From an uncultured delta proteobacterium (GTDB lineage Bacteria; Myxococcota; Myxococcia; Myxococcales; Anaeromyxobacteraceae): a DNA stretch of 64,000 nucleotides. Each line of letters begins with the position of its first letter. Within the stretch, counting starts at the first letter, position 1. The position numbers and the translations under genes are program-made. Where the stretch lies: positions 64,001 to 128,000 of the forward strand of contig CAVYBH010000011.1 of the NCBI GenBank assembly GCA_963766715.1. The letters are read 5' to 3'. Shown here in pieces: positions 42,676-64,000 of this stretch. The notes beneath the pieces were generated by a model. It was not told the origin of the DNA. It saw nothing but the letters and a program-made list of their open reading frames with translations, and made no database searches.

Positions 42676-43661
42676 TGGGGCGCGCCCGGCTCGTCCTGCG
42701 CTCGCTGGCGCCCTTCCTGGTGGCGCTGCCGCTCCTCTGGCTCCTGCAGGGACGGATGCCGGACGACTACTCCATCCTGTTCATCTCCGTCGCGGTGAAC
42801 GTGATCCTGGCGGTGTCGCTCAACGTGGTGAACGGCTTCACCGGCCAGTTCTCCATCGGTCACGCCGCCTTCATGGCGGTGGGCGCCTACACCGCCGCGC
42901 TCGTCACCACCGGCATGGAGACCTTCCAGATCGCCGGGCTTCCGCTGGTCGCCTCCGACGCGGTGGTCTTCTTCGTGGCCATCCTGGCCGCGATGGCGAT
43001 GTCGTCGGTCGCCGGGCTGGTCGTGGGCATCCCCTCGCTGCGCCTCCGGGGCGACTACCTGGCCATCGTGACGCTCGGCTTCGGCGAGATCATCCGCGTG
43101 GTCATCGAGAACACCCGGGTGCTGGGGCAGGCCACCGGCATCTCCGGGCTCCCGCGCTACACCAACGTCCTCTGGGCGGGCATGGCGGTGGTGGCCACCG
43201 TGGTCATGGCGCGGCGGCTGCTCCTCTCCACGCAGGGCCGGGCGCTGCTCGCCATCCGCGAGGACGAGGTGGCGGCCGAGGCCATGGGCGTCGACACGGT
43301 GGGCTGGAAGGTGCGGGCCTTCGTGATCTCCGCGGCCTTCGCCGGCCTGGCCGGCGTGCTCCTCGTCCACCGGATCCAGCTCGTCACCCCGCGCATGTTC
43401 ACCTTCGTGAAGTCGATGGAGGTGGTGGTGATGGTGGTCCTCGGCGGGATGGGCTCCATCACCGGCTCCATCATCGCGGCGACCGTGCTCACCGTGGCGC
43501 TCGAGTGGCTGCGCGGCCTCGATCAGTACCGGATGGTGATCTACTCGATGCTCCTCATCGTCCTCATGCTGACGCGCCCCTCCGGGCTCTTCGGCACGAA
43601 GGAGATCTGGGACGCCGCACCGCGCTGGATGCGGCGTCGCGCCGGCGGGGGCACGCCGTGA
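42675..43661 (+). CDS. livM: Branched-chain amino acid ABC permease
   Basis: GFTGQFSIGHAAFMAVGAY, LRLRGDYLAIVTLGFGEI, AIREDEVAAEAMG, VVLGGMGS. Confidence 0.92.
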   Translation: MGRARLVLRSLAPFLVALPLLWLLQGRMPDDYSILFISVAVNVILAVSLNVVNGFTGQFSIGHAAFMAVGAYTAALVTTGMETFQIAGLPLVASDAVVFFVAILAAMAMSSVAGLVVGIPSLRLRGDYLAIVTLGFGEIIRVVIENTRVLGQATGISGLPRYTNVLWAGMAVVATVVMARRLLLSTQGRALLAIREDEVAAEAMGVDTVGWKVRAFVISAAFAGLAGVLLVHRIQLVTPRMFTFVKSMEVVVMVVLGGMGSITGSIIAATVLTVALEWLRGLDQYRMVIYSMLLIVLMLTRPSGLFGTKEIWDAAPRWMRRRAGGGTP

Positions 43662-44480
43662 GCGAGGCGGGCGCGCCGGTCCTGGAGGCCCGCGGGGTGG
43701 TCATGCGGTTCGGGGGGCTCACCGCCCTCTCCGGATTCGACCTGGTGCTGCGGACCGGGGAGCTGGTCGGGCTCATCGGCCCGAACGGCGCCGGGAAGAC
43801 CACCGCCTTCAACGCGCTCACCGGCGTCTACGCGCCCAGCCAGGGAGAGGTCCAGGTCGCCGGGACGCGGGTGAACGGCATGCGTCCCCACCAGATTCTG
43901 CGACCTGGGGGTGGCCCGCACCTTCCAGAACGTGCGCCTCTTCCGGGAGCTCTCTGCCTTCGACAACGTGCGCATCGCCTGCCACGCCGGGTCGCGGAGC
44001 GGGTTCACCTCGGCCTGGCTGCTCACGCCCCGCCACGACGAGGAGGAGGAGCGGATCCGCCACCGCGCCGACGAGTTCCTGGCGGTGATGGATCTCTCGC
44101 ACCGCAAGGACGAGCTGGCGCGCAACCTGCCCTACGGCGAGCAGCGGCGTCTCGAGATCGCCCGCGCGCTCGCCACCGGCCCGAAGGTCCTCTGCCTCGA
44201 CGAGCCCGGCGCCGGGATGAACGCCTCGGAGAAGGTGGCCCTCATGGCCCTCATCCGGCGCATCCGCGACCAGTTCTAGCTCGCCATCCTGGTCATCGAG
44301 CACGACATGCGGCTCGTCATGGGGGTCTCCGAGCGGGTCATGGTGCTCGACCACGGCGTGACCATCGCCCACGGGCGTCCCGAGGAGGTGAGGCGGGATC
44401 CCAAGGTGATCGAGGCCTACCTGGGCGACGGCAAGCTGAAGCTCCGCCCGCCGCGGCGGGCCGGGGGAGGGGAGGCGTGA
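43658..44480 (+). CDS. livG: Branched-chain amino acid ABC ATP-binding protein; indel near 43900 and in-frame TAG at 44277-44279
   Basis: FGGLTAL, GPNGAGKTT, ARTFQNVRLF, LPYGEQRRLEIARAL, LDEP; frame continues past TAG as LAILVIEHDM...VIEAYLG. Confidence 0.9.
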
Positions 44481-45193
44481 GCGAGCCGCTCCTCTCGCTG
44501 CGCGACCTCGTCGTGCACTACGGCGTGATCCGGGCCCTCTCCGGGATCTCGCTCGAGGTGCCGAAGGGGCAGATCGTCGCGCTCATCGGCGCGAACGGCG
44601 CCGGGAAGAGCACGACGCTCCGGGCCATCTCGGGGCTCGTGCGCCCCACGTCGGGCTCGGTCGACTTCCAGGGCGCCTCGCTCGCGGGGCTGCCGTCCCA
44701 CGAGATCGTGGCGCGGGGAGTGGCCCAGGCGCCGGAGGGGCGCGGGATCTTCCTCAACCTCAGCGTGAAGGAGAACCTCGAGCTGGGCGCGTACCTGCGC
44801 CGGGACCGCGCCGCCATCGCGGCCGACCGCGAGCGGGCCTACTCGCTCTTCCCCATCCTGAAGGAGCGGCGCGACCAGGTGTCCGGCACGCTCTCGGGGG
44901 GCGAGCAGCAGATGCTGGCGGTGGCCCGGGCGCTCATGAGCCGCCCCACCCTGCTCCTGCTCGACGAGCCGTCGCTCGGGCTCGCGCCGCAGGTGGTCGA
45001 CCGGATCTTCCAGGTGATCCAGGAGATCAACGAGGCCGGGGTGTCGCTCCTCCTGGTCGAGCAGAACGCCAACATGGCGCTGCAGGTCGCCCACCACGCC
45101 TACGTGCTCGAGACCGGATCGATCGTCATGCAGGGAAGCGGGCGGGAGCTGCTGGAGAGCCCGGAGGTCCGCAAGGCCTACCTGGGGGAGTGA
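44477..45193 (+). CDS. livF: Branched-chain amino acid ABC ATP-binding protein
   Basis: GANGAGKST, PEGRGIF, LSGGEQQMLA, LDEPSLGLAP, VEQNA, VRKAYLG. Confidence 0.93.
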   Translation: MSEPLLSLRDLVVHYGVIRALSGISLEVPKGQIVALIGANGAGKSTTLRAISGLVRPTSGSVDFQGASLAGLPSHEIVARGVAQAPEGRGIFLNLSVKENLELGAYLRRDRAAIAADRERAYSLFPILKERRDQVSGTLSGGEQQMLAVARALMSRPTLLLLDEPSLGLAPQVVDRIFQVIQEINEAGVSLLLVEQNANMALQVAHHAYVLETGSIVMQGSGRELLESPEVRKAYLGE

Positions 45194-45196
45194 CGG

Positions 45197-45850
45197 TCAC
45201 CCGCGCGTCGTCTGGCGGGCGCGGAGGGCGACCACGCGATCCTTCAGGAACTCGAGCCGGAGCTCGCGCTCGACCACGAAGTCGGTCGGCGTGACGCCGG
45301 CGGCCACCAGGATGTCGCGCTGGGCCGGGGTGAGCTCGAGGGTCCTCGAGGCCGCGTAGGTCCAGGCATCTCCGGTCGAGCCGCCGCCGTCCCGTCCCAG
45401 CAGCGCGATCACCTCGGCCTTCGTCATCCCCAGGCGAAGCCCGCCGCCGGTGGCCTCCGGCAGCGACTTCACCGGCCTGCAGGTGGGGCGCCCGGCCTCG
45501 GGGATGGAACGGCCCGGGACGTACTCGAGGTGCGCCGCCGCCGCCGCGAGCTCGAAGCGCCGGAGGACCACGAGCCCCTCTCCCGACCCGAAGCCCAGGC
45601 CGAGCCGCGCACCGGACGGTCCGGCCCAGCAGAGGTAGGGGGCCTTCGTGCCCGGGAGCCAGTCCTTGCGATCCACCTGGCCCAGGCGGCGCGTCGCCAT
45701 CTCGAGCGTGGCCTCCTCGAGGCGGAGGCCGGCAATCGACATGTGGCGCTCGAGCAGCTCGAAGAGCGCCTCCTCGTCGATCGGCTGCGCCCGGGCCACC
45801 GGTGCGAGGCACGCGGCCAGGGCGGCGGCGGCGGCGAGGCGGCGGATCAC
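45197..45850 (-). CDS. Hypothetical exported protein (the frame is also open upstream to GTG 45970)
   Basis: GAGAGGAAGG RBS, signal peptide MIRRLAAAAALAACLAPVARA, GLRLGMTKAEVIALLG motif. Confidence 0.6.
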   Translation of the reverse strand: MIRRLAAAAALAACLAPVARAQPIDEEALFELLERHMSIAGLRLEEATLEMATRRLGQVDRKDWLPGTKAPYLCWAGPSGARLGLGFGSGEGLVVLRRFELAAAAAHLEYVPGRSIPEAGRPTCRPVKSLPEATGGGLRLGMTKAEVIALLGRDGGGSTGDAWTYAASRTLELTPAQRDILVAAGVTPTDFVVERELRLEFLKDRVVALRARQTTRG

Positions 45851-46017
45851 GCGGCCCTTCCTCTCGCGCCGCTCGTGACGCCCGGAGAGGCCGTACACCT
45901 GCGCCGCGATCGCCCCGGCGGCGAGGAGACCGAAGAACCCGAGGAAGAGCGCGACGACGAGGCGGCCCACGTCCCGGATCTTTACCCGGGAGGCCGCCGA
46001 TTCGCCTCCGGCCCCCG

Positions 46018-47254
46018 TCACCCGTTCGAGGCGCGGATCTCCGCCAGGCGCCGCCGCCTCGCCGGGCCGACCGCGAGCTGGCCGGCCGCGACGGCCAGGC
46101 CGGCGACCAGGCAGGTTCCCCAGACCCCCGTCGGACCGAAGCGGCCGAGCCCCCAGGCGCCCAGCGCCGGCGCGGCGAACGCCGCCACGGCCCAGGAGAG
46201 CGAGTAGGCGCCCTGGTAGCGGCCGCGCAGCGCGGCCGGCGACAGCTCCGACGGGATGGTGGACACGACCGGCAGGTAGGCGATCTCGCCCACCGTCCAG
46301 ACCAGGATCCCAATCGCGTACCAGCCCACCGAGTGGTGCAGGGCGTTCATCCCGAAGCCGAGCCCGATGAGGGCCGCCCCGGCCGCCATGGCGTGGGCGG
46401 GGTCGCGGGAGCCGATCCAGCGCGCCGCCAGCGGCTGCAGGAAGACGATGATCCCGCCGTTCAACGCCATGAGGAGCCCGAACCCCGCCGGGGAGACGCC
46501 GTGCTGGGCCATGTCCACCGGCAGCGTGAGCTGGAACTGGAAGAAGATGGTGGCGACGGCGAGGTGGAGCAGGAGGAAGGGCAGGAAGACCCGGTCGCGC
46601 AGCGGCACGACGAGCCCGGCCACGACCTGCCGGACCGTCTCCGGATGGGACGGGCGGGCGGGTCTCCGCGACGAAGCGCCAGACCACCCAGGCGAAGACC
46701 AGGCTGGTGAGCCCGTCGCCGACGAAGAGCAGGGTGTAGCTCAGCGACGCGATGAACCCCGCCAGCACGAGCCCGATGGCGACGCCCAGGTTCACCGCCC
46801 AGTAGAGGAGCCCGAAGGCGCGCACCCGGTCCTCCGGGGGGACCACGTCGCCGATCACCGCGTGGGAGGCGGGCCGGTAGACCTCCCCCACGAACCCCAC
46901 CGCGAAGACCAGCGGCGCCAGCGCCGCGGGCGACCGCACGAGCCCGAGCGCGATGGTGAAGGCGGCGCCCCCGACGAGGGAGCCGAGCAGCGCGGCCCTG
47001 CGTCCGATGCGGTCGGCGACCACGCCCGCGACCGGCCCCGCCCCGATGGCGCCCAGGCCCCAGAGCGAGACCAGCCCGCCCGCCTCCGCGACCGACAGGC
47101 CCCGCTCGCCGGTGAGGTAGAGGGACAGGAAGGGCACCACGAAGCTGCCGATCCGGTTCACGAGCAGCCCCACCCAGAGCGCCCAGTAGGCGCGCGGAAG
47201 GCCGCCGAGGAGCTGGCGGCGCGTGTCGCGCAGGGACTGGAGGGAGAAGGACAC
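46018..47254 (-). CDS. MFS transporter; indel near 46630
   Basis: GLLVNRIGSFVVPFLSLYL, motif A GVVADRIGRR, RVRAFGLLYWAVNLG, LRGRYQG. Confidence 0.9.
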
Positions 47255-47283
47255 GGCGGCACATTCTACTTCCGAAACGACGA

Positions 47284-47305
47284 CGGCCGCCCCGAGGGGC
47301 GGCCG
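47284..47305 (-). terminator. Probable intrinsic terminator downstream of glnA
   Basis: 9-bp GC stem CGGCCGCCC/GGGCGGCCG with a 4-nt loop, followed on the minus strand by TCGTCGTTT; ~25 nt after the glnA stop. Confidence 0.6.
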
Positions 47306-47331: not shown

Positions 47332-48756
<1,425 letters not shown>

Positions 48757-48803
48757 TGCGGAGTGGTCTCCTGATGGGGCGGAGGGTGGACGAGGCCCGG
48801 AGT

Positions 48804-48819
48804 AGCACGGCGTGTGCCA
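48804..48819 (-). promoter_or_regulatory. Sigma-54 (-24/-12) promoter of glnA
   Basis: Minus strand TGGCACACGCCGTGCT with exact GG-N10-GC spacing, ~50 nt upstream of the glnA start. Confidence 0.8.
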
Positions 48820-48869
48820 CCCGGATCTACTCCAATCGACCCGAGGATCGGAGGTGGCTTTCGTGGGGC

Positions 48870-48886
48870 TGCCCGATAAACAGGCA
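48870..48886. promoter_or_regulatory. Putative NtrC-type enhancer site
   Basis: TGCCCGATAAACAGGCA, a 17-bp TGC-N11-GCA dyad upstream of the sigma-54 promoter; similar to the site at 58384. Confidence 0.6.
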
Positions 48887-49030
48887 ATGACTGCACGGGA
48901 ACCGGGCTCCCCGGCGGGCCGCGGCGCCCGAATGCCCCCATCGGGGGGTCCGTGCTTCCCGGGACGCCCGGCGCCGTGCCGAGCGTGAGTCGCGGCAGTA
49001 GGTAGGCACGCCCGCGCCCGAGCAATCGGG

Positions 49031-49057
49031 TGTCTCATTCTGCAAACCCGGCGTGTC
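49031..49057 (+). promoter_or_regulatory. Putative ECF-sigma autoregulatory promoter, copy 1
   Basis: TGTCTCAT-N13-CGTGTC, 18 nt upstream of the sigma start; same motif and spacing at 53659 and 55326. Confidence 0.72.
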
Positions 49058-49075
49058 ACGAGGACAGGAGGCGTT

Positions 49076-49624
49076 TTGGAAGACCCGAGGAGCCAGGTGA
49101 GCCGGCTCTACAGGGAGCTTGGCCCGGTGGTGTACCGCCGGTGCCTTCGACTGCTCGGCGACCGGGCAGCGGCCGAGGACGCCACGCAGGAGGTCTTCGT
49201 GAAGCTGCTGCGCGACATGGGTCGGCTCCAGGATCGGGAAACCGTGCTCCCCTGGATCTTCCGGGTGGCGACGAACCACTGCCTGAACGTCCGTCGGGAC
49301 GCGCGAGGGCGCGGGCAGGACGGGCTCGCCGAGGACCTCGAGGTCCTGCCCGACACCCGCGGCGACGGTCCGGAGGCCTACCCGGATCGAGCGCTGGCGC
49401 AGTCGGTGCTGGCTCGCTTCGACGCCGAGACCCAGGCCGTGGCCGTGGGCGTCTTCGTGGACGGGATGGAGCACGAGGAGGTCGCGGCGGTCCTCGGCAT
49501 CTCCCGGCGCACGGTCTCGCGGAAGCTCTCGAGGTTCCTCGAGAACGCGCGAAAGTACCTGGCCCGGACCGACGCGGGACGGACGGAGCGGGCGAAGGAG
49601 CCGGACGAGGCGGTGCTGCCGTGA
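49076..49624 (+). CDS. ECF RNA polymerase sigma factor
   Basis: [58 protein letters not shown] before TTG. Confidence 0.92.
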
Positions 49625-50361
49625 CCCGCTGCGCGTCCGAGCTGGCCCTCGAGCGCCACCTGCTCGATCCCCGGCATTCCCGGATCGACCTGCACCTCCG
49701 ATCCTGCCCGGCGTGCCGGGCCCGCCTCGCCCGGATGGAGCGGGAGGGCGAGGGGTTCCACCGGTACGTCCACCCGCGCACCATCGACCGGATCCTGGCG
49801 GCGCAGGCGGCCCGCAAGCCCGCGTGGCGGAGATGGGCCACCTTGCTGCTGCCGGCCGGGGGGCTCGCCGCGGCGGCGACGGCCGCGCTTCTCCTCGTCT
49901 CCCCGATCCCGCCCGCCGGCTACACGGGCGAGAAGGGAACGCCGCTGGCGATGCGGGTCTGGGTCGGGGACGCCGACGGCGCCCGCGAGGTGTCCGACGG
50001 TGGCGCGGTTCCGCTGGGTTCCCGCCTGCGGTTCCGGGTCGCGGCCGGTCGCCCCTGCCGGCTCTGGCTCGTCTCGGCGGATGCCCAGGGAGACGTCTCC
50101 CGGCTCTACCCGGCGCAGGGAGATGCCGCGGTCGTGCAGGGAGGCGCCACGCTGCCGGGCGGGGTCGCGCTCGACGACGTGGCCGGGCCCGAGCGGCTCT
50201 TCGCAATCTGCAGCCCGGACCCCGTTCCCCTCGAGAAGGTCGAGCAGGCGATCCGGCGCGCCGCCCCGGGCGGTGCCGAGGCGATCCGGCGCCCGGTGCG
50301 GCTCGACGGCCTCCCCTCCGGGACCACCCAGGCCACGCTCCTCGTCGAGAAGGTCCCTTGA
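49621..50361 (+). CDS. Anti-sigma factor: zinc-binding N-terminus, one TM, extracytoplasmic DUF4384-like domain
   Basis: HLRSCPAC (HxxxCxxC), TM LLLPAGGLAAAATAALLLV, GSRLRFRV...DAQGDVSRLYP...LDDVAGPERLFAI; GTGA overlap with the sigma gene. Confidence 0.8.
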   Translation: MTRCASELALERHLLDPRHSRIDLHLRSCPACRARLARMEREGEGFHRYVHPRTIDRILAAQAARKPAWRRWATLLLPAGGLAAAATAALLLVSPIPPAGYTGEKGTPLAMRVWVGDADGAREVSDGGAVPLGSRLRFRVAAGRPCRLWLVSADAQGDVSRLYPAQGDAAVVQGGATLPGGVALDDVAGPERLFAICSPDPVPLEKVEQAIRRAAPGGAEAIRRPVRLDGLPSGTTQATLLVEKVP

Positions 50362-51872
50362 GCCGGAGGAGCACGCTCGCCGCGCTGCTGCTCGTGGCCG
50401 CCCTCGCGCCGGCCCCGGCCGCCGCGGCGGCGCGCTTCGCCATCGTCGTCGGCAACGACGCCGGGACGACCGGACGCCCGCGGCTGTACTTCGCCGAGAA
50501 GGACGCCGACCGCGTCCGCGCCGCGCTCCTGGAGCTCGGCGACTTCTCCGACGATCGCGTCGTCGTGCTCAAGGGCCGGAGCGCCTCGGCGTTCCGGGAG
50601 GCCTTCGCCGCCACCGACGCGCGCATGCAGCTGGCTCGCCGCTCGGGGGAGCGCACGCTCCTCGTCGTCTACTTCTCCGGTCACGCCGGCTCGGTGGGGC
50701 TCGAGCTCGGGAACGACACGCTCTCGTACGACGAGCTGCGCAAGCTCACCGCCGCCTCCCAGGCCGACACCAAGGTCGTCGTCCTGGACGCATGCGAGTC
50801 GGGCGGCCTCACCCAGGTGAAGAGCGCCAGGCCGCTGTCCGCCGTCGACTTCGCCCTGCCCAACGACGAGAGCGCCCGGGGGACGGCCTTCATCACCTCG
50901 GCCGCGGTGGGAGAGGCGGCCCAGGAGTCGGCGGCCCTGGGCGGCAGCTTCTTCACCCATCACCTCGACGTGGGGCTGCGCGGGGCGGCCGACGCCGACG
51001 GGGACGGCCAGGTCACGCTGGCCGAGGCCTTCCGCTACACCTCGGCCCGCACGGTGGCCCAGACGGCCGGGACGCAGAGCGGCATCCAGCACCCCACCTA
51101 CGAGTTCCGCATGTCCGGCCGAGGCGACGTGGTCCTCGCCGACCTGCGCAAGGCCGAGTCGAAGCTGGTCCTCCCCGCCGATCCCGGGTCGACCTACTTC
51201 CTTCGCGGCCCGAAGGGCGTGCTCACCGAGGTTCCGGCCCAGGCGGCGCCGCTCGCGCTGGCCCTTCCGGCGGGGCGGTACGCGGTGGAACGGCGCTCCC
51301 CGGACGGGCGCGCGACGGGCGAGGTCACGCTGGAGAAGGGCGCGACCCGCGACCTCCCGCTCCTCTCGCCCACCCGGTACGAGGTGGCGCGCGCCAAGGG
51401 AGGGCCCAAGCCGAACCTGGCCTTCGTCGAGGGCGGGGTGGCCTGGTTCGACATGAAGGGGCTGGGCGTCGCACCGACGGTCCGGGCCGGCGTCCGCAAG
51501 GAGTTCGGGCCGGTCGGGCTCCGGGTCGCCTTCGACTGGGCCGGAAAGAACGTCTCGGGGGGCACGCTCGACTACCAGTTCCAGTACTTCGGCGGCTCGG
51601 TGGCGCTGCTCTGGCCGCTCACCGAGAGCGCCTTCTTCCTGGAGCTCGGGCCCCAGGTCACCGGCGGGTTCGCCAACCAGACGTTCCCGTCGAGCCCGTC
51701 CTTCTCCTCGGGCATCTTCGGCGCGGGTGCGGCGCTGATGGCCTCGATTCCCCTCGGCCCGGTGCGCCTCGGCCTCGACGTCAGCGCGGCCGCCCAGCTC
51801 TACAAGCTGAACGACAAGACCGTCGTCCGGCCGGGCGGCTCGGCCGGCCTGCTCCTGCTCTTCGGGTTCTAG
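50358..51872 (+). CDS. Exported caspase-like (peptidase C14) protein with putative C-terminal outer-membrane beta-barrel
   Basis: Signal peptide, RFAIVVGN, YFSGHA (His), VLDACESG (Cys), AQES...GSFFT; C-terminal amphipathic beta-strands ending ...LLLLFGF. Confidence 0.85.
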   Translation: MSRRSTLAALLLVAALAPAPAAAAARFAIVVGNDAGTTGRPRLYFAEKDADRVRAALLELGDFSDDRVVVLKGRSASAFREAFAATDARMQLARRSGERTLLVVYFSGHAGSVGLELGNDTLSYDELRKLTAASQADTKVVVLDACESGGLTQVKSARPLSAVDFALPNDESARGTAFITSAAVGEAAQESAALGGSFFTHHLDVGLRGAADADGDGQVTLAEAFRYTSARTVAQTAGTQSGIQHPTYEFRMSGRGDVVLADLRKAESKLVLPADPGSTYFLRGPKGVLTEVPAQAAPLALALPAGRYAVERRSPDGRATGEVTLEKGATRDLPLLSPTRYEVARAKGGPKPNLAFVEGGVAWFDMKGLGVAPTVRAGVRKEFGPVGLRVAFDWAGKNVSGGTLDYQFQYFGGSVALLWPLTESAFFLELGPQVTGGFANQTFPSSPSFSSGIFGAGAALMASIPLGPVRLGLDVSAAAQLYKLNDKTVVRPGGSAGLLLLFGF

Positions 51873-51873
51873 G

Positions 51874-53647
51874 ATGCGCAAGCTCCCCCACGCCCTCGTC
51901 GCCCTCCTCGCCCTGTCGGCGCTGGCGTCCACGGCCTGCAGCAAGACGCTCGTCGACGAGGACGGGGCGAACCTCGTCCCCGTCGCCTGCAACTGCCTGG
52001 CGCCCGCGGGCGGGAGCCCGGTGTGCAACCCCGACGGCAGCTGCGACTACGTCTGCCAGGGCGACCTCCTCAAGTGCGGGGGCGGGTGCGTGACCTGCTC
52101 CGCTCCGGCCAACGCCAGCCCGGCCTGCGTGCAGGCCACCTGCGGCTTCACCTGCAACGCGCCGGCGCGGCTCTGCGAGGGCGCAGCGGCCACCTGCCAG
52201 GTGGAGAGCGACCTCTCCTGCGGCGCCAGCTGCGCGCCATGCCCCGGTCCGTCCACCGGCCCGGGGCGTGGGGTCTGCCAGCCCGGTCCGTCCGTGGGGA
52301 CCGGCACCTGCTCCGTCGCCTGCGACGCGGGCACCCACGGCTGTGGCGGCTCCTGCTTCGCCGACGACGACGCGGCCCACTGCGGCGCGACCTGCCAGGT
52401 GTGCACCGCGCCGGTGAACGCCTCCCCAATCTGCGCCGCCGGCGGCTGCGCGTTCGCCTGCAACCCGGGCTGGATGCGCTGCGGCGACGGATGCTGCCTC
52501 GCCTCCTCGGTCGCCGCGGGCGGCCAGTTCGGCTGCGCCCTCCTCGACGACGGCCGCGTCCGGTGCTGGGGCGCCAACGACCGCGGCCAGCTGGGAGACG
52601 GATCGACGACCTTCCGCCCGGTCCCGGTCGACGTGACGGGGCTCCCGGCGGCGCCGTCCCGCGCCGTCGCGGTCGCCGCGGGCTGGGCCCACGCCTGCGC
52701 CGTGATCGCGCCGGGCGGCCAGGTCTAGTGCTGGGGCGACAACACCACGGGTGAACTGGGCGCGGGCGCCCCGGGCAGCTTCAGCCCCACGGCGATCCCG
52801 GTCGCCGGGATCGCCGGCGTGCCCGCCCCGGCCTCCTCCGTCGTCGCCGCCGCTGATCGCCGCCGGTGGAGGCGTGGCCGGGACGCCCGCCGCCGCCTTC
52901 GGGCACACCTGTGCGGTCGGCTCGGGCGGCCTCGCCTGCTGGGGCGCCAACGGGTCCGGGCAGCTCGGAGACGGGACCACCACGCAGAGCAGCAGCCCGC
53001 GAGTCGTGTCGGGGCTCGGCGTCGTCACCTCCGTGACGGCCGGCGAGCAGCACACCTGCGCCGTGTCCGGCGGCGCCCTGCGCTGCTGGGGCGCGAACGG
53101 CGCGGGGCAGCTCGGCGACGGCAGCTCGACCTCGAGGACCACGCCGGTGGCGGTGAGCACCGCGGCGTTCCCCGCCGGGGCCACGGCCAGCCTCGCCGCC
53201 GCGGGCCGGACCTCCTCCTGCGCCATCGTCGGGACGCCGGCCGCGCTCTTCTGCTGGGGCGACAACGGGGAGGGACAGGTGACCGGCAACGCGCCGCCTC
53301 CCGCCACCCAGCCCACGCCGCTCGCGCCCGCGCTCGGCGGCAGCTTCGTCCCGACGTTCGTCGCGGCGGGCCGGGCCCACGTCTGCGCGCTCAAGCCCGA
53401 GATGAAGTGCTTCGGCGCCAACGGGCAGAGCCAGCTGACCGGGCCGCCCGCGGCGGTGGGCAAGGTGGACGTGACGCTCACCGGAGGCAGCGGCATCGCG
53501 CTCACCGTGGCCGCCGGCGGCGACCACACCTGCGCGCTCCTCACCGACGGCTCCGTGCAGTGCTGGGGCGCGAACGACCGGGGCCAGACCGGCACGGGCC
53601 TTCCGGCCGCGTCGGTCGTCACGCCCGCGTTCGTGTCCGGACGCTGA
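51874..53647 (+). CDS. Lipoprotein with Cys-rich region and RCC1-like repeats; in-frame TAG at 52726-52728 and indel near 52850
   Basis: Lipobox STAC; repeated CxAPxNASPxC Cys-rich units; [48 protein letters not shown] repeats. Confidence 0.82.
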
Positions 53648-53658
53648 TCCAAACCATC

Positions 53659-53685
53659 TGTCCCGTGCCGCGGAGTCGCCGTGTC
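53659..53685 (+). promoter_or_regulatory. Putative ECF-sigma promoter, copy 2
   Basis: TGTCCCGT-N13-CGTGTC in the intergenic gap before ATG 53733. Confidence 0.72.
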
Positions 53686-53732
53686 TTCCCGTCAGACAGC
53701 GGGCGGGCACTTCTCCAGCGACGGAGCGGCAC

Positions 53733-55298
53733 ATGGACAGCGCGAAGCGGAACCTGGCGGTCGGCGTGGCGATGGCAGTCTTCCTCGTGGCCTGCGGGGG
53801 CACGACCGGCGGGTCGTCCGCCGGAGGTGCCGTGCGGCCCGACCGGCCCCACCGGACCCACCGGGCCCACCGGACCGACCGGGCCCACCGGGCCGACCGG
53901 ATCCACCGGTCCCACCGGACCGACCGGGTCCGACGGGCCCCACCGGGTTCGCCGTCACGGCCGCCGCACGCGGCGCCATCACGGGCCTCTCGCCCCTGAC
54001 GGTGAATGGCGTCCGCTTCGACACCTCCGGGGCCGAGGTCCGCGTCGAGGGGGAGATCCGGGGCGAGGCCGAGCTGCGCAAGGGGCAGGTGGTCCACGTC
54101 CGGGGCGAGATCCACGGCCGCGACGGCCGCGCGGCCACCATCTCCTTCGACGACGACCTGCGCGGGAAGGTGGACGACCGCGGCGGCAGCCGCATGCACG
54201 TGGGCGGACACGAGATCGAGATCGAGGACGCGACGGAGTTCGAGGACGAGACCCGCCGGGAGGACTCGATCCAGCCCGGCGAGCGCGTCCGGGTCTCCGG
54301 GCACCGGACGTCGTCCGGCGCCATCCGCGCCACCCGCATCGAGAAGGAGGCGGGCAGCCAGGAGGACTTCGAGGTGAAGGGCTACGTGGCGAGCCTGGCC
54401 GCCGCCGCCGTTCCGCCGTCCTTCGCGCTCCGCATGACTCCCGCCGGCGCCGACGTCTACCAGGTGACGCTCGCTGCCGGCGCGACGCTCCCCGCCGGCG
54501 TGAAGGACGGCTCCTTCGTCGAGGTGAGGTCGGCGGCGAGGCCGGTGGCCGGCGCGCTGATCGCCACCGCCGTCGCGCTCGAGGACGCGAGCACCGGCGC
54601 GGAGAACGACGAGGCCGAGGTCGAGGGGATCGTCACCTCCGGCGACTCGACCGCCTTCTCCATCGGCGCCCAGCCGGTCACGACGTCGGCCGCGACGCGC
54701 TGGGAGAACGGGCTGCCCGAGGATCTCCTCCCCGGGGCGAAGGTCGAGGCGGAGGGGACGCTCGACGCCCAGGGCGTGCTCGTCGGCGACGAAGGTCTCC
54801 TTCCGGGAGAACGTCCGGCTGCAGGGAGCCCCCGCGGGCGCGGTCGGGACGGCGCCCGGCGTCGGCACCTTCCAGGTCCTGGGCCTCACGGTCCGGGTGG
54901 ACGGGCTCACGGAGTGGAAGTCGTCGGGCAAGGGCGGCGGCATCTCCCTGTCGAACCTGGGCACGTCCCCGGTCCAGGTCCGGGGCTACCGCGCCCGGAA
55001 CGGAACCGACGTCATCGCCACCCGGGTCGAGTCGCGGAGCGACGTCCGGATCATCCTCCAGGGCCCGGTGTCCTCGAAGGACGCCGCGGCGGGCACGCTG
55101 GCCATCCTGGGTCTCACCGTCCGGTCGAGCGGCGGCACGGAGTTCCGCGACGCGACCGACGGCGCCCTCTCCGCCTCGGCCTTCTTCGACGCGGTGACGG
55201 TGGACGGGACGGTCGTGAAGGCGCGCGGCAGGGACGCCACCGCCCTCTCCGGGACCACGCTCGCCGCCGAGGAAGTGGAGATCGAGGGCAGCCGCTGA
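53733..55298 (+). CDS. DUF5666-like repeat lipoprotein with collagen-like linker; indels near 53833, 53929 and 54785
   Basis: Lipobox LVAC; repeated small beta domains ([16 protein letters not shown]...IRATRIE, EVEGIVT...KVEAEG, LQGPV). Confidence 0.75.
53836..53944 (+). repeat. 9-bp tandem repeat encoding about 12 Gly-Pro-Thr triplets (one Gly-Ser-Thr)
   Basis: GGN CCN ACN units with synonymous third-position variation. Confidence 0.9.
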
Positions 55299-55325
55299 GG
55301 AAATCGGGCGAGGCGGGATCTCTCG

Positions 55326-55352
55326 TGTCCCGTCCCGCCCGCCCTCCGTGTC
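55326..55352 (+). promoter_or_regulatory. Putative ECF-sigma promoter, copy 3
   Basis: TGTCCCGT-N13-CGTGTC in the intergenic gap before ATG 55395. Confidence 0.72.
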
Positions 55353-55394
55353 AAGGACCGTAGAGCCTCGAGGAATCCATCCAGGAGAGTCGCC

Positions 55395-56864
55395 ATGACC
55401 CGTTTCCACCGCCGCCGCCCGCTCGCCTCAGCCAGATTCGCCCCCCCCCTGGCTGCGGCCCTCCTTCTCGCCGCCTGCGGAGGGTCGACCTCGACTCCCG
55501 CCGGTGGCGGGGGAGGGGGCGGCGGCGGTGGAGTCACCGCGGCGGCGACCAGCAAGGGCGTGGTCACGGCCACCGGGAACCTCACGGTGAACGGCATCCG
55601 CTTCGACACCTCGACGGCGCAGATCCGCATCGACGACAACCCGGGGCGCCCCGAGTCGGAGCTCAAGGTCGGGATGGTCGTGAAGGTGAAGGGGTCGAAG
55701 GACGACGCGGCGGGCACGGGAAAGGCCACGGAGGTCGAGGCCCACCACGTGGTCCGAGGCAAAGTGGACGACAAGGGAGGCGGCATCCTCCGCGTCGGCG
55801 GCCACGAGGTGGAGATCGAGCACGGCACCGAGTTCGAGAACCACGCCTCCGGCCTCGACTCGATCTCGGTGGGCGAGCGGGTCCGCGTGCACGGCCACCC
55901 GACGGCCACGGGCCACATCCGCGCCACCCGCGTCGAGAAGGAGGCCGGAACCTCGGAGGACTTCGAGGTGAAGGGCTTCGTGTCCGACCTCGCGGCCGCC
56001 GCTGGCACCTTCACCCTCCAGGTCTCGCCCGACGCAGCCTCGAGCTACGCCGTGACCATGGCCTCCGGCGTCGCCGTCCCGGCCGCCGTCGTGAACGGCT
56101 CCTACGTCGAGGTCCGCGCGGCCTCTGCGCCGGTGGCCGGGGCGCTCACCGCCACCGCGGTCGTCCTCGAGGACGCCAGCCTCGGCGCCGCCCAGGCCGA
56201 GGTCGAGGTGGAGGGGCTGGTGACCAGCGGATCCTCCGCCCAGTTCGTGGTCGAGGGGCAGACCGTCGCCACCTCGGGCACCACCCGCTGGGAAAACGGG
56301 CTGCCGGCCGACCTCGCTCCAGGAGTGAAGGTGGAGGCCGAGGGCAGGCTCGACGCCGCCGGCGTCCTCCAGGCCACCAAGGTCTCCTTCCGCGCCAACG
56401 TCCGCCTGCAGGGGCCGGTCTCGAACGTGGACGTGGCGAGCGGCAGCTTCCAGGTCCTCGGGCTCACCGTGCGCACCGACCCGTGGACCGAGTGGAAGTC
56501 CTCGGGCGGCGGCGGGTCGCTCGGCCTGGCCACCCTCGGCTCCGGCCCGGTCGAGGTCCGCGGCGTTCCCGGGCAGGCCGGCGAGATCCTCGCGACGCGC
56601 GTGGAGGCCACGAACGACTCCCGCCTCTACCTCCAGGGACCGGTGACGTCGAAGGACGCCGCGGCCGGTACGCTCGTCATCCTGGGAATCACCGTCCAGA
56701 CCGGCTCGTCGACCGAGTTCAGCGGCATCGCCGGGCCGTCGACGAGCTCCGCATTCTTCGCGGAGGTGGTCGCGGGCAAGACGGTGGTCAAGGTGCGCAG
56801 CCGCGATCCGCTGTCCGGGACCACGCTCACCGCGGATCAGGCAGAGGTCGAAGGGAGCCGATGA
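55395..56864 (+). CDS. DUF5666-like repeat lipoprotein, paralogue of the preceding gene, with a poly-Gly linker
   Basis: Intact ORF; lipobox LAAC; collinear with the upstream gene ([57 protein letters not shown]-terminal EGSR). Confidence 0.8.
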   Translation: MTRFHRRRPLASARFAPPLAAALLLAACGGSTSTPAGGGGGGGGGGVTAAATSKGVVTATGNLTVNGIRFDTSTAQIRIDDNPGRPESELKVGMVVKVKGSKDDAAGTGKATEVEAHHVVRGKVDDKGGGILRVGGHEVEIEHGTEFENHASGLDSISVGERVRVHGHPTATGHIRATRVEKEAGTSEDFEVKGFVSDLAAAAGTFTLQVSPDAASSYAVTMASGVAVPAAVVNGSYVEVRAASAPVAGALTATAVVLEDASLGAAQAEVEVEGLVTSGSSAQFVVEGQTVATSGTTRWENGLPADLAPGVKVEAEGRLDAAGVLQATKVSFRANVRLQGPVSNVDVASGSFQVLGLTVRTDPWTEWKSSGGGGSLGLATLGSGPVEVRGVPGQAGEILATRVEATNDSRLYLQGPVTSKDAAAGTLVILGITVQTGSSTEFSGIAGPSTSSAFFAEVVAGKTVVKVRSRDPLSGTTLTADQAEVEGSR

Positions 56865-56878
56865 TCGGCTCCCTCGGG

Positions 56879-56912
56879 CGCGTCCCCGGATACCCCTCCC
56901 TCCGGGGACGCG
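56879..56912. terminator. Hairpin between convergent genes, probable bidirectional terminator
   Basis: Perfect 12-bp inverted repeat CGCGTCCCCGGA / TCCGGGGACGCG with a 10-nt loop; no clear U-tract. Confidence 0.6.
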
Positions 56913-56918
56913 TCAGCT

Positions 56919-58373
56919 TCACTCCTTCGGCTTCAGGCCCAGCGCCCGCATCCGCTCCCGCAGCGTGTTGCGGTTCATGCCCAGCAGCTCGGCCGCCTTG
57001 AGCTGGTTCCCGTGGGTGCGGGCCATGGCGGAGGCGATGAGCGGGGCCTCCAAGGCGGCGAGCGCCGCCTGGTAGCGTCCGCCGTCCGGCTCCGGGCCGT
57101 CGAGGAATCCATCCACGAATCCGGTGAGCCCCTTCTCCCGCGCGGCGCCGGCCGGCAGCAGCGGGGCCAGGTCCCGGGCGGTGATGCGGTTGCCGGGCAG
57201 GGAGAGCAGCACCCGCTGGATCACGTTCTGGAGCTCGCGGACGTTGCCGGGCCAGGAGTGCGCGAGGAGCAGCGGCTCGGCGTCGCGCGCGAGGGTGACC
57301 GGTCGGCCGCGAAGCTGCTCGCCGTACTTGGCGGCGAAGTGCCGGGCGAGCAGGATCACGTCGTGGTCCCGCTCCCGCAGGGGAGGCAGGCGGATGGGAA
57401 CCACGGCCAGCCGGTAGAAGAGATCGCGGCGGAAGCGCCCCTCCTCCACCGAGCGCCCCAGGTCGGCATTGGTCGCGGCCACGATGCGGACGTCCACCGG
57501 GAGGGGGCGCGATCCGCCCACCCGGTCGATCTCCCGCTCCTGCAGGACGCGAAGCAGCTTGGCCTGGAGCTCGACGGGCATCTCGCCGATCTCGTCGAGG
57601 AAGAGCGTGCCGCCGCTCGCCAGCTCGAACTTGCCGGGGCGACGCTCGGCGGCGCCGGTGAACGCGCCGCGCTCGTGGCCGTAGAGCTCGCTCTCCATGA
57701 GGTCGCGCGGGATGGCGGCCATGTTCACGGTGATGAACGGGCCCCGGGCGCGGGGGGAGTTGGCGTGGACGGCGCGGGCCACGAGCTCCTTGCCGGTCCC
57801 GCTCTCGCCCATCAGCGTGACCGTCATCTCCGTGCGGGCCACGCGGCCGATCTCCTTGAAGACCTCCACCATCGCGGGCGAACGGCCGATGAGGGAGTCG
57901 ATCGGGGCTCCGTCGCGCTTCCGATCCGGCTCGGGGCTCCGTGCCGGGGCGCGCTCCGAGCGCTCGTCGGCCTCGATCTCCGGGCCGATGGCGAGGTCGC
58001 GGACGATTCGCTCGACGCGCGCCAGGTCGAAGGGCTTGCCCAGGTAGTCGGCGGCGCCGCGCTTCATGGCCTCGACCGCCGACCGCATGGTGTCCTCGGC
58101 GGTCATCACCACCACGAAGGGCGAGTCGGGGCGGCCGGCCAGCTCCCCGAGCAGGGTGAAGCCGTCGTCTCCGGGGAGGCGGACGTCGAGCAGCACGAGC
58201 CCGATGCCGCCGTGGCGGCCGGTGCCGTGCCTCCCGAGCTCGACGCGCGCCTCCTCGGCGCTGCCGGCCTCGAGGTGGGGGGCGCCGACCCGCTCGCAGG
58301 TGCGGGCCAGGACGAAACGGACGGAGGGCTCGTCGTCGACGATCAGGACCTTGCGCATCGCCGTCTCGTCCAT
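56919..58373 (-). CDS. ntrC: Sigma-54-dependent response regulator, NtrC-like
   Basis: Receiver [45 protein letters not shown], Fis-type HTH; downstream of glnB and the kinase. Confidence 0.88.
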
Positions 58374-58383
58374 GCACCTCTTA

Positions 58384-58400
58384 TGCCCGAACCGCGGGCA
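58384..58400. promoter_or_regulatory. Palindrome TGCCCG-N5-CGGGCA, putative NtrC-type site
   Basis: TGCCCGAACCGCGGGCA in the ntrB-ntrC gap, 10 nt from the ntrC start. Confidence 0.55.
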
Positions 58401-58439
58401 CCCGGCATGACGAGAAGCGGGCAGACCCGACAGGCCGGC

Positions 58440-59498
58440 TCAGGTGGCGGACAGGGGCAGGTAGAGGGTCGCCTCGGCCCCCCCGCCCGATCGGTTGCGG
58501 ACCTCGATCCGGCCGCCGTGCGCCTCGACGATCCGGCGCGAGACCGCCAGCCCAAGCCCCGTTCCCTGGGCCTTCGACGTGGCGAAGGGCGTGAAGAGGC
58601 GGGGAAGCATCGACTCGGGGATGCCGGGACCGTTGTCGAGCACCGCCACCCGCGCGAGCGGCACCGTCCGCCCGCTCGCCTGGCGCAGCCGCACCGACGC
58701 CACGCCCGTCTCCATGAGGACCTGGGCCCCCTGGGTATCCCGCACCGCTTCCACGGCGTTCCGGAGGATGTTCAGGACCACCTGGGTGAGCTTCTCCTGG
58801 TCGCCCTGGATCGGGGGCAGCGAGGGGTCGAAGCGCTGCGTGAACGCGATCCGGTCGCCGCCGGGAAGCCCCTTCGCGATCACCAGCACGTCCCGCATCA
58901 CGCCGTGGACGTTCACCGGCCCGGACTGGAGCGTGGCCGGCCGGGCCAGGTCGAGCAGCTCGCGGACGAGCCCGTCGACCCGCCGCGCCTCCCGGGCGAT
59001 GACGAGGGCGTACTCGCGCGCCGTGCCCTCGGCCTCCCGGGCGAGCAGCTCGGCCGAGCCCTGCAACCCCGCGAGGGGATTCTTGATCTCGTGAGCGAGG
59101 CCCGCGGCCAGGGCCTCGAAGTCGAGGTGGCGCTCGCCGTTCCGGCGGGCCCGCACCAGGATGACGGTGCCGACGCACGAGGCGCCCTCGAAGAGCGGGG
59201 AGACCTCGACGCTCAGGGGAACCGAGGCGTCTCGAGGGCTCGGGAAGTCGCCGCCGGTGGCCTCCTGAGCGCGCCGGACCCGGTCGGCCAGCGCCTCGAG
59301 CGGGGCGCCGCCCGGGAGGGCGCGGACCGGCAGCCCGACGGCCCGTTCCCGGCTTCGGTCGAAGAGCTCCTCGGCGGCCGGGTTGAGGTGCACGACGCCA
59401 CCGTCCAGCCCGACCAGAAGGACCGGATCTCCGATGGAATCGAGTGCACCGCGCGCCAGGGCCGCCGGGAGCGGCGGTGCCTTGCTGGCTCGGGACAC
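58440..59498 (-). CDS. ntrB: PAS sensor histidine kinase, NtrB-like
   Basis: PAS LNPAAEELF, AGLAHEIKNPLAGLQG, DPSLPPI, LNILRNA, DNGPGIP, GTGLGL. Confidence 0.88.
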   Translation of the reverse strand: MSRASKAPPLPAALARGALDSIGDPVLLVGLDGGVVHLNPAAEELFDRSRERAVGLPVRALPGGAPLEALADRVRRAQEATGGDFPSPRDASVPLSVEVSPLFEGASCVGTVILVRARRNGERHLDFEALAAGLAHEIKNPLAGLQGSAELLAREAEGTAREYALVIAREARRVDGLVRELLDLARPATLQSGPVNVHGVMRDVLVIAKGLPGGDRIAFTQRFDPSLPPIQGDQEKLTQVVLNILRNAVEAVRDTQGAQVLMETGVASVRLRQASGRTVPLARVAVLDNGPGIPESMLPRLFTPFATSKAQGTGLGLAVSRRIVEAHGGRIEVRNRSGGGAEATLYLPLSAT

Positions 59499-59528
59499 GG
59501 GGCCCCCTGGTTGCCGGACGGCCGGCGA

Positions 59529-59928
<400 letters not shown>

Positions 59929-60188
59929 GCGCCGGGGACCGCCCGGCTCGGCGTGGATGCCCTCACTTCGGTTGCCCGGTTCCCGGGCTGTCATCTGCTC
60001 GATTTCCGGACAGCTGGTACGGCCCTGCGACAATGGATCGAATCGGTGCCTGCCGTCTTCTGCCCAAGTGTGGAGTCCCCGGGGCGATCGCGTCGGGCAC
60101 GAGGGAGAAGGCTGCAACGGGCGGGCCACGAGACGACGCCCCGGATTCCCCGGCCCCCTCCGGGAGGCTGCGGTAGATTTCCGACTGG

Positions 60189-61268
60189 ATGGAATGGGTG
60201 CTCGCCCTCGTCGCCGCCGCGGCACTCCTCGCCGCGATGTCCTTCGCGCATCACGCCTTCTGGACGGGCCGCCTCAGGCAGCCCATCCAGGACGACGGGA
60301 TCGTCCGGGCCGAGACCCGGGACGGCTGGAGGCTCGCCCTCGGCATGAGGCTGCCCCGGGGGCCGGAGCTCCGCCCGCCGGTCCTGCTCGTCCACGGGCT
60401 CTCCGCCAACCGCTGGACCATGGACGCCGGCGTGGAGAGCTTCTCGCTCGCCGCGCACCTGGCCCGCGCGGGCTTCCGCACCTTCTCGCTCGACCTGCGC
60501 GGTCACGGGGACTCGCGCCACCCGCCGCGCCGCGCCCAGGACTGGAGCTTCGACCAGTACGTCGAGGAAGACGTGCCCGCCGCGCTCGAGGCCATCCGCC
60601 GCGACACGGGGGACGAGCAGGTGCTCTGGGTGGGGCACAGCCTGGGCGCCGTGACAGGGCTCGTCTCCTGCCAGCTCCACCCCGAGCGCATCGCCGGCAT
60701 CGTGGCCATCGCCGGCCCGATGAGCTTCGACGTGGACGGCCTGGTGGCCCGCTACCTCGGATGGGGGTTCCTCGTCGACGGCCGGTTCAACCGGACGCTG
60801 GCCCGCATGCTCGCGCCCTACGCGGGGCTCACCCACCCGGCCGCCGGCGAGCTCGCCATCAACGGGCGCAACGTGGACCGCCCCGTCCTCCAGCGGCTGC
60901 TCGCCAACGGGATCGAGGACGTGCCCGAGCAGGTGTTCTTCCAGCTCGCCGACTGGGTGAAGCGCGACGCCTGCCGCTCGGCCGACCGATCCCGGGACTA
61001 CCGGGCCGGCCTGGCCGGCTGCCGGCAGCCCGCGCTCTTCCTGGCCGCGCCGAGGGACCACCTGGCGCCCCCGGAGGTGGTGCGGCGCAGCTTCGACCTG
61101 TGGGGCGGCGAGAAGACCTTCGTCGAGTTCGGCAGCGACGGCGGCTACTCCGCCGACTACGGGCACACCGACCTGCTCGTCGGGAAGCGGGCGCCGCAGG
61201 AGGTCTTCCCGGTGGTGACCGAGTGGCTGGTGGCGCGGGCGCACCCGGCGCCGGGCGGCCGCCCGTGA
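60189..61268 (+). CDS. Alpha/beta-fold hydrolase with N-terminal anchor
   Basis: VLLVHGL, DLRGHGDS, nucleophile elbow GHSLG, DYGHTDL. Confidence 0.88.
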   Translation: MEWVLALVAAAALLAAMSFAHHAFWTGRLRQPIQDDGIVRAETRDGWRLALGMRLPRGPELRPPVLLVHGLSANRWTMDAGVESFSLAAHLARAGFRTFSLDLRGHGDSRHPPRRAQDWSFDQYVEEDVPAALEAIRRDTGDEQVLWVGHSLGAVTGLVSCQLHPERIAGIVAIAGPMSFDVDGLVARYLGWGFLVDGRFNRTLARMLAPYAGLTHPAAGELAINGRNVDRPVLQRLLANGIEDVPEQVFFQLADWVKRDACRSADRSRDYRAGLAGCRQPALFLAAPRDHLAPPEVVRRSFDLWGGEKTFVEFGSDGGYSADYGHTDLLVGKRAPQEVFPVVTEWLVARAHPAPGGRP

Positions 61269-61774
61269 CGCCGCTCCTGCTCGCGGCGCTGCTCGCGGCG
61301 AAGCCGCTCGTGTGTCCGCCGGGCGCCCTGCCGGCCGGACAGCCGCCGCCCTTCGGGAACGCCCAGTGGTGCGAGGGACCCGACGCGAGCGGCGCCAGAA
61401 AGCGGCAGGGGCCGGGGCGCGACTTCTACGACGTCGACCTCGTTCACGTGGAGTCAACCTGGCGCGACGGCCGGCTCGACGGCCCGTGGGTCCAGTTCCA
61501 TCGCGACGGCCGGAAGGCCGCCGAGGGGCGCTACCGGGCCGGCGAGAAGCACGGACCGTGGACCTACTGGTTCGAGGGCGGCCAGGTGTCGGAGGAGGTC
61601 GCCTTCGACATGGGGCGCCGCCACGGACGCTTCGTGCAGTGGTGGCCCGGGGGGAAGAAGCGCGCCGAGGGGAGCTTCTGCTTCGGCCTGCAGTGCGGCC
61701 GCTGGACGACGTGGGGCGAGGACGGAACGGAGCTCGGGACCATCGTCTACGAGCAGATCCGCGCCACGCCGTGA
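61265..61774 (+). CDS. Exported MORN-variant repeat protein (YwqK-like fold)
   Basis: Signal-like N-terminus; repeats GRLDGPWVQFHRDG, GEKHGPWTYWFEGG, GRRHGRFVQWWPGG. Confidence 0.75.
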   Translation: MTPLLLAALLAAKPLVCPPGALPAGQPPPFGNAQWCEGPDASGARKRQGPGRDFYDVDLVHVESTWRDGRLDGPWVQFHRDGRKAAEGRYRAGEKHGPWTYWFEGGQVSEEVAFDMGRRHGRFVQWWPGGKKRAEGSFCFGLQCGRWTTWGEDGTELGTIVYEQIRATP

Positions 61775-61790
61775 GGCCGCGCGGGGGAGG

Positions 61791-62321: not shown

Positions 62322-62402
62322 CCGGGAGCTCCCGCACCAGGGTATCCGCCCGATAAACGGCCGAGGACCCCCGGATGTTCCCGGAAAACACCCCTTTGGG
62401 GT

Positions 62403-63886: not shown

Positions 63887-64000
63887 CCGATTCGCACCAG
63901 CTCGTCCTGCAGCTTCGAGAAGATGCGCGGCCCGCCCGGCGCGAGCACCACGTCGATCTCGAGCCGCACGCCCATGCCCTCCTCGGGCAGGTAGATGCCG
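63883..64000 (-). CDS. C-terminus of a probable M24 (Xaa-Pro) aminopeptidase, runs off the window
   Basis: GIYLPEEGMGVRLEIDV matches the (E)PGIY...GVRxE motif; ATGA overlap with the next gene. Confidence 0.7.
   Translation of the reverse strand, partial: GIYLPEEGMGVRLEIDVVLAPGGPRIFSKLQDELVRIG

Follow-up and report, generated by a model that had tools for sequence, protein, structure and literature searches.

Promoters of the ECF41 group, read by sigma factors of the extracytoplasmic function (ECF) type, have two boxes separated by a spacer of n16. In the ECF classification (Casas-Pastor et al. 2021, PMC7826278), the text gives these boxes as TGTCACA and CGTC, the -10 of ECF51 as GCGTGTC and the -35 of ECF250 as TGTCCCTTT, and reports the promoter of ECF216 subgroup 2 as not conserved. 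Operons that combine a sigma-70 gene with a metacaspase gene have been reported in Myxococcus xanthus, Anaeromyxobacter, Haliangium, Sorangium, Ralstonia and Fibrobacter (Asplund-Samuelsson et al. 2012, PMC3501461), and orthocaspases are reported to cleave after basic residues (PMC6426788). The DdvS/DdvA pair of M. xanthus is described with the promoter GTAA-n16-CGT and with CBASS and CRISPR targets (PMC11506125, PMC6061681), and in the Type III-E Csx29/Csx30/RpoE system a caspase-like protease cuts a sigma-binding protein (bioRxiv 10.1101/2022.08.17.504292). Here we describe a locus of an uncultured delta proteobacterium of the Anaeromyxobacteraceae (assembly GCA_963766715.1), contained in a stretch of 64,000 nucleotides (contig CAVYBH010000011.1, positions 64,001 to 128,000) that is referred to below as the window. 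Three copies of a two-box motif in this locus are very probably -35/-10 promoters for the ECF sigma factor of the gene at 49076, and through them this sigma factor would drive its own four-gene operon and the genes of two predicted DUF5666 lipoproteins.

The motif, TGTCYCRT-N13-CGTGTC, had been put forward, together with the sigma factor and a putative regulon, in an earlier reading based on the nucleotide sequence alone (the sequence-only reading). A pattern scan of the window recovers all three copies listed in that reading and gives no match in shuffled sequence (n = 100 shuffles):

49031..49057, + strand: putative promoter copy 1, with -35 TGTCTCA and extended -10 CG-TGTC; 23.8 bits; predicted start at 49066; heads the sigma operon
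53659..53685, + strand: putative promoter copy 2; 23.9 bits; predicted start at 53694; heads DUF5666 gene 1
55326..55352, + strand: putative promoter copy 3; 23.6 bits; predicted start at 55362; heads DUF5666 gene 2

A genome-wide scan, also proposed in the sequence-only reading, identifies these copies as the sole exact matches in the 4.2-Mb genome, and across the same genome there is no exact match with any spacer from 5 to 24 other than 13. The half-sites occur 79 and 1891 times, which gives 0.018 pairs expected at one spacing, a value that on its own overstates the significance since the pattern was derived post hoc from the same three sites. The boxes end 18, 47 and 42 nucleotides before the start codons for copies 1, 2 and 3, respectively, as the sequence-only reading had it, and the ribosome-binding sites that it noted are present, with a clear Shine-Dalgarno sequence at copy 1 (AGGAGG) and copy 3 (AGGAG) and a weaker one at copy 2 (GGAG). 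No sigma70 consensus promoters were found within 48700-57000, and no terminator was called near the internal motif copies.

The conservation of the motif before orthologous genes, which the sequence-only reading had named as a check, is pronounced. An orthologue of the sigma factor is encoded in 9 of 13 genomes of the same genus, and in all nine the motif precedes it by about 19 nucleotides, with a spacer of N14 in seven and N13 in two; at these loci, the spacers and the upstream DNA have diverged while the boxes have been kept. Among the 11 locus-linked DUF5666 genes that have upstream DNA, 10 are preceded by the motif, the lone exception being the second copy in genome G009, which overlaps the first copy; no motif was found upstream of three distant DUF5666 homologues outside the locus. 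Genome G008 has all three copies, two of them with AGTGTC. The consensus originally proposed is thus exact for the window copies and looser in relatives, where spacers of 13 and of 14 both occur and CGTGTC can begin with C, G or A, leaving GTGTC as the -10 core; the refined form is TGTCYCRY-N13/14-VGTGTC, or TGTCCCR-n16/17-TGTC in the standard register. When the genome is scored with a matrix derived from 22 sites of relatives, the three window sites take the first three places (23.6-23.9 bits, the next at 19.8). When held-out loci of the sigma family were scored (20 loci, of which one, L189, is the same contig as the earlier-seen L094), 9 of 20 reached at least 13 bits within 200 nucleotides of the sigma gene compared with 2 of 80 wrong-spacer controls, and 14 of 20 reached at least 9 bits compared with 5 of 80 controls, with 11 of these 14 sites located at -43 to -50. 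In three loci (L192, L195 and L203) the family sigma gene is preceded by a different ECF-like sigma gene, and the motif is found before the latter, about 730-770 nucleotides upstream. A stricter pattern matches 8 of the 9 same-genus genomes with the sigma factor and none of the 4 in which the query found no sigma; a relaxed pattern applied to 92 genomes of the bacterial family matched all 92 and was discarded as too noisy.

These data also bear on the notion that the three copies reflect chance and shared ancestry, copies 2 and 3 being duplicates and copy 1 a coincidence. The pattern was defined post hoc, the two DUF5666 genes are paralogues, and in a metagenome-wide scan two among at least 119 matches listed are module genes with the motif rightly placed before them (two other protein hits are unrelated kinase/regulator genes), so that the bare pattern is mostly background there. 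A duplication is indeed probable and would be old, with the two DUF5666 proteins 57% identical and both lineages present in G008 and G009, and to this extent the shared ancestry suggested in the sequence-only reading stands. It does not, however, explain the copies away, because the boxes of copies 2 and 3 are identical at 14 of 14 positions whereas their flanks are at chance identity (8/25, 6/13 and 2/18). Copy 3 is also present in G008, and its boxes are unaltered in the related contigs compared. With the motif conserved across genera, footprinting largely refutes coincidence, which we consider scarcely credible. A side observation concerns the relatives with a single DUF5666 gene (L064-L067; body L068-L070), in which a leader and N-terminus of the gene 1 type are joined to a body 72-81% identical to gene 2, which suggests that the single-copy genes arose by deletion through recombination between tandem copies.

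The region downstream of the boxes carries a signature expected of a transcription start. A pyrimidine-purine step is found at +9/+10 after the box in 27 of 27 target-gene sites, compared with 3-17 of 27 for other offset pairs and 21 for the pair that shares +9; the sites, which represent roughly a dozen lineages, were chosen by the boxes only and not on this step. Transcripts would accordingly start at 49066, 53694 and 55362, at the ninth or tenth base after the box rather than only a few nucleotides beyond CGTGTC, where the sequence-only reading had expected them. At two loci an ATG without an evident ribosome-binding site lies 8 and 10 nucleotides after the box, as for leaderless transcripts. 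In the arrangement that these features point to, sigma4 would read TGTCYCR and sigma2 would read (C/G/A)G-TGTC across 16-17 nucleotides. The extended -10 of the window motif equals the -10 given for ECF51 (PMC7826278).

Further evidence comes from the covariation of the motif with the sigma factor. In a quick tree, 108 sigma factors split into clade A, with the helix RRTV[SA]R[KR], and clade B, with RRTVINR. By strict pattern, the motif described above (motif A) is found in 23 of 32 cases in clade A, and a different one, YTGCACAC-N13-SGGGTY (motif B), in 39 of 47 in clade B. Over whole loci, motif A gives 25 hits at N13/14 in 22 clade-A loci and none in 45 clade-B loci, and motif B gives 39 hits in clade B and one in clade A, a covariation that amounts to essentially one evolutionary contrast. 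Motif B stands free in seven clade-B cases and at internal intergenic sites of L102 and L108. The residue code published by Todor et al. 2020 (PMC7776599) gives a mixed picture; it fits the pairing of Arg176 with G-35 and of Asn84 with TG, the residue equivalent to Asn84 allowing TG at -13/-12 (0.185, second of 16), and the two clade-specific motifs offer a natural test pair for this ECF residue-base code; Tables S2/S3 of the same paper have no deltaproteobacterial level.

A number of observations weigh against this reading. Nine of the 32 clade-A sigma factors have no match directly upstream, although three of the nine have one-base variants, and the same is true of 6 of the 20 held-out sigma factors, three of which have a match before the preceding gene. 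The 22 training sites of the matrix were picked with the window-derived pattern and the relatives are non-independent, so that the ranking is not a fully independent test. Motif B straddles the ribosome-binding site and start codon of the sigma gene itself in 32 of the 39 clade-B cases (L100-L142, Archangium/Myxococcaceae-like); coding constraint therefore confounds part of the covariation, and the motif is not simply autoregulatory there. A transcript from such a straddling motif would lack the sigma start, which makes a negative-feedback wiring possible. The residue code, finally, agrees in part only. With Ser in the place of Arg171 it gives a preference for G at -31 (0.55), yet the motif has C there (0.18), and Arg in the place of Ser172 is unselective in the code as published (PMC7776599).

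The locus, whose closest named relatives are Anaeromyxobacteraceae/Myxococcales records, consists of a divergent glnA, the four-gene sigma operon, the two DUF5666 lipoprotein genes and then the convergent ntrC, ntrB and glnB:

49076..49624, + strand: ECF sigma factor, 182 amino acids, with sigma2 and sigma4 only and the helix SRRTVSRKL
49621..50361, + strand: putative anti-sigma factor, 246 amino acids, with HxxxCxxC (H25, C29, C32), a hydrophobic helix at 75-93, K105-G106 and a DUF4384 match below the Pfam cut-off
50358..51872, + strand: caspase-like protease (Peptidase_C14), 504 amino acids, with a predicted signal peptide, a His109/Cys146 dyad, an EF-hand-like loop, K155, K347-G348 and a C-terminal region resembling an outer-membrane beta-barrel
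51874..53647, + strand: Cys-rich RCC1-repeat predicted lipoprotein, interrupted in the assembly by a TAG at 52726 and a frame change
53733..55298, + strand: DUF5666 predicted lipoprotein 1, frameshifted in the assembly
55395..56864, + strand: DUF5666 predicted lipoprotein 2, 489 amino acids, with five DUF5666 matches

The sigma factor has PF04542 and PF08281 above cut-off, a TIGR02937 score of 76.6 bits and no sigma3, the domain composition of group 4. It has no C-terminal extension, and the next gene, which overlaps its end, encodes a separate anti-sigma-like protein, so that domain search and gene neighbourhood agree with the sequence-only reading that this protein lacks the extension of ECF41. 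The interruptions of DUF5666 gene 1 and of the RCC1 gene are not mentioned in the sequence-only reading. The break in DUF5666 gene 1 is likely an assembly error, because indels are present at the breaks in a related contig of about 95% similarity and frameshifts affect many further genes of the genome. Genes for a branched-chain amino acid ABC transporter, an MFS protein and others at 42000-47300 and 60000-64000 of the window likewise appear to be split by frame changes, which fits an indel-prone assembly. In several genera, the ECF module lies between glnB-ntrB-ntrC and glnA, which share the strand opposite to that of the module (window 47332-59867; L031-L036, L039-L041), and a paralogous sigma/anti-sigma locus also has a P-II gene and a histidine kinase gene close by (L046-L050, G000 C2).

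Given this setting, the motif could conceivably be the operator of another transcription factor, a TGTC direct repeat with its halves about two helical turns apart that might be tied to NtrBC and glnA. TGTC is present in both boxes, glnA and ntrC flank the module in many members of the family, and NtrC-like boxes are found 120-160 nucleotides upstream of copy 1. These boxes are two tandem palindromes at 48870-48886 and 48892-48908, accompanied by a sigma54-type motif, TGGCAC-N5-GTGCT, at 48804-48819 on the - strand, and all are conserved in a 12-sequence alignment; both labels follow the consensus sequences of NtrC and sigma54 sites. However, the palindromes and the sigma54-type motif face glnA and are separate from copy 1, with a stretch of variable length before it, and the position between glnA and ntrC consequently does not imply nitrogen control of the ECF module. 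A repeat-binding factor also fits poorly with the loss of the TGTC repeat in clade B, where the geometry is kept, with the tolerance of spacers of 13 or 14, with the pyrimidine-purine signature that marks a start site and with the persistence of the motif at loci away from glnA. We regard the operator as very improbable compared with an ECF promoter. A sigma54 reading of TGGCAC variants in relatives was rejected by eye on one example (L089), in which the GC is not at -12.

The identity of the sigma factor that reads the promoter deserves separate consideration. The genome has 24 ECF-like loci, with a strong upstream site only at sigma 49076, and contains three paralogous sigma factors of the same family with 73%, 72% (frameshifted) and 63% identity to it and near-identical sigma2/sigma4 residues (PRTVSRK, RRTVSRR). 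Because these paralogues share recognition residues, cross-talk from them is likely. One of them, on contig C2, has a variant site of its own, TGGCCCGT-N13-GGTGTT (11.2 bits), and the C8 paralogues have neither an upstream site nor an adjacent anti-sigma hit. It seems improbable, though, that a paralogue is the main or an equal reader and that the regulon belongs to the family: the best three sites are all in the locus of sigma 49076, and G008 has all three motif copies yet no other full-length sigma match at E ≤ 1e-20. The attribution to this particular sigma factor in the sequence-only reading is consequently upheld by position and orthology, but the fit is not unique to it. No full-length ECF41-like protein was evident among the 24 ECF-like loci, several of whose genes are frameshifted.

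The regulon of sigma 49076 looks small and local, comprising the sigma factor, the zinc anti-sigma/DUF4384 protein, the exported caspase, the RCC1 lipoprotein and the two DUF5666 lipoproteins, and no conserved target of the motif outside the locus was established in the genomes compared. The proposal of an ECF promoter with such a regulon is thus backed by footprinting, by the start-site signature and by the covariation of sigma factor and motif. Four distal sites (C2:229666, C13:222417, C14:22004 and C16:29813), which score 15.6-19 bits and match the stricter pattern, were not accepted as members; 15-23-bit scores also occur at wrong spacers, and the C13 site, the only distal one tested, is strong in this genome, partial in 1 of 12 orthologues and absent in 11. 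Also rejected was a site in G003 before the orthologue of the window gene at 61791-62321, which is partial in G002 and has no counterpart in the window or in four further loci. In other genera the genes downstream of the motif vary and encode mostly predicted lipoproteins or exported proteins, and the sigma family itself is represented in 59 of the 92 genomes of the bacterial family that were searched. Homologous membrane proteins whose C-terminus, by eye, resembles IPT/TIG are encoded behind the motif in two genomes (L174 of G002 and L052 of G004); the homologue in G000, near a C8 orphan sigma gene, is without a motif site. The region G000 C8:590000-642000 contains, besides two orphan sigma paralogues, group-3-like sigma genes, a number of weak sites of the motif and many genes with frameshifts, for surface proteins and multicopper-oxidase-like proteins.

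A complex model of the sigma factor with the N-terminal 70 residues encoded by the next gene scores 0.70, compared with 0.01 for the best control, with a contact agreement of at least 88% and a partner pLDDT (predicted local distance difference test) of at least 81; 51 of 78 solved pairs attain this mark, as do 2 of 108 mismatched ones, and the score may in part reflect likeness to solved sigma/anti-sigma complexes. In 69 homologues of the anti-sigma factor H25, C29 and C32 are invariant, and the protein has one hydrophobic segment, with Lys105-Gly106 just beyond the membrane helix. In 55 caspases, His109 and Cys146 are invariant, and so are two further sites: Lys155, which follows the catalytic Cys, and Lys347-Gly348, which precedes the barrel-like part. 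The barrel-like C-terminus is indicated by a feature search (0.93) and by a terminal Phe. For the caspase profile no solved relative was found, and a pattern search of the caspase identifies one EF-hand-like loop, with no Pfam EF-hand hit at E ≤ 0.1. With five loci at contig ends set aside, 54 of 54 caspase-containing loci retain the Lys-Gly of the anti-sigma factor, as against 2 of the 9 that lack a caspase, a contrast weakened by the reduction of the nine caspase-less loci to about four lineages.

These features are compatible with a proteolytic switch. At rest, the zinc-binding N-terminus of the membrane anti-sigma factor would hold the sigma factor; upon a stimulus, which we guess to be a cell-surface signal sensed by the RCC1 lipoprotein or by the caspase, the exported caspase might cut the anti-sigma factor immediately beyond the membrane, at Lys105-Gly106, after which an RseP-type protease would complete its removal, and the freed sigma factor would amplify its own expression. 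By analogy with DdvA, the likeliest trigger would be a caspase that makes the site-1 cut, with RseP acting next, and we consider it about evenly balanced. The broader proposal, in which an outer-membrane-anchored caspase would cut itself at Lys-Gly/Ser and the anti-sigma factor at the same kind of site, and in which sister clades would be wired differently, with positive autoregulation here and, in Archangium-like relatives, a promoter over the sigma start yielding inhibitor and protease without more sigma factor, is tentative and falls a little short of probable. The motif provides a handle on this possible caspase-gated switch, and the promoter would be a direct reporter for what exported bacterial caspases do, including the need for the caspase and the Lys-Gly site.

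In its overall logic, the system works like any autoregulated ECF/anti-sigma pair, for which such promoters are ordinary, and its local regulon matches the 'local regulator' type described by Todor et al. (PMC7776599). No paper giving this promoter or a mechanism was found in the literature searched; Datasets S1/S2 of Todor et al., which lay outside the search, could hold the motif. The Csx29/Csx30 system parallels the proposed switch in its caspase-like protease that cuts a sigma-binding protein, and some Csx30 C-termini are DUF4384, but that system is described as cytoplasmic, RNA-triggered and CRISPR-linked (bioRxiv 10.1101/2022.08.17.504292), and the annotated surroundings of the locus showed no CRISPR genes. 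With DdvS/DdvA, as described (PMC11506125, PMC6061681), the locus shares a myxobacterial ECF sigma factor and a putative zinc-binding membrane anti-sigma factor, and for DdvS/DdvA a motif scan likewise gave four local promoters and a site-1 cut of caspase-like type, ahead of RseP, has been proposed; the DdvA protease, however, is a periplasmic TPR-CHAT domain inside the anti-sigma factor, whereas in the window the C14 protein is separate and its tail barrel-like, next to a 246-residue anti-sigma factor with a sub-threshold DUF4384 and a different motif. The sigma/metacaspase operons noted in PMC3501461 place the two genes together in the same taxa, as an operon pattern only, without anti-sigma factor, promoter, regulon or mechanism in the text concerned. 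To ECF41 the window system is similar in the register of the boxes, TGTCCCR-n16/17-TGTC aligning with TGTCACA/CGTC as the sequence-only reading had proposed, in the TGTC start of the -35 and in the small regulon, here probably autoregulated. The window sigma factor is nonetheless not ECF41: it has no SnoaL extension and a separate anti-sigma factor, and its boxes are TGTCYCR and VG-TGTC. Compared by description only, the system fits ECF216 subgroup 2 (PMC7826278), whose occurrence in Myxococcales matches its closest relatives and whose anti-sigma features correspond to H25/C29/C32 and the one hydrophobic segment, features also common in other groups such as ECF25 and ECF276; the difference is that no caspase is named in the supplement text of that source. 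The description further mentions EF-hand domains in the gene neighbourhood, for which the window offers the single pattern-based loop of the caspase. The protein QDE78790.1 is listed as ECF216 in PMC8999054. The motif would thus define a recognition sequence and a regulon for a sigma family whose best-fitting published group lists no conserved promoter.

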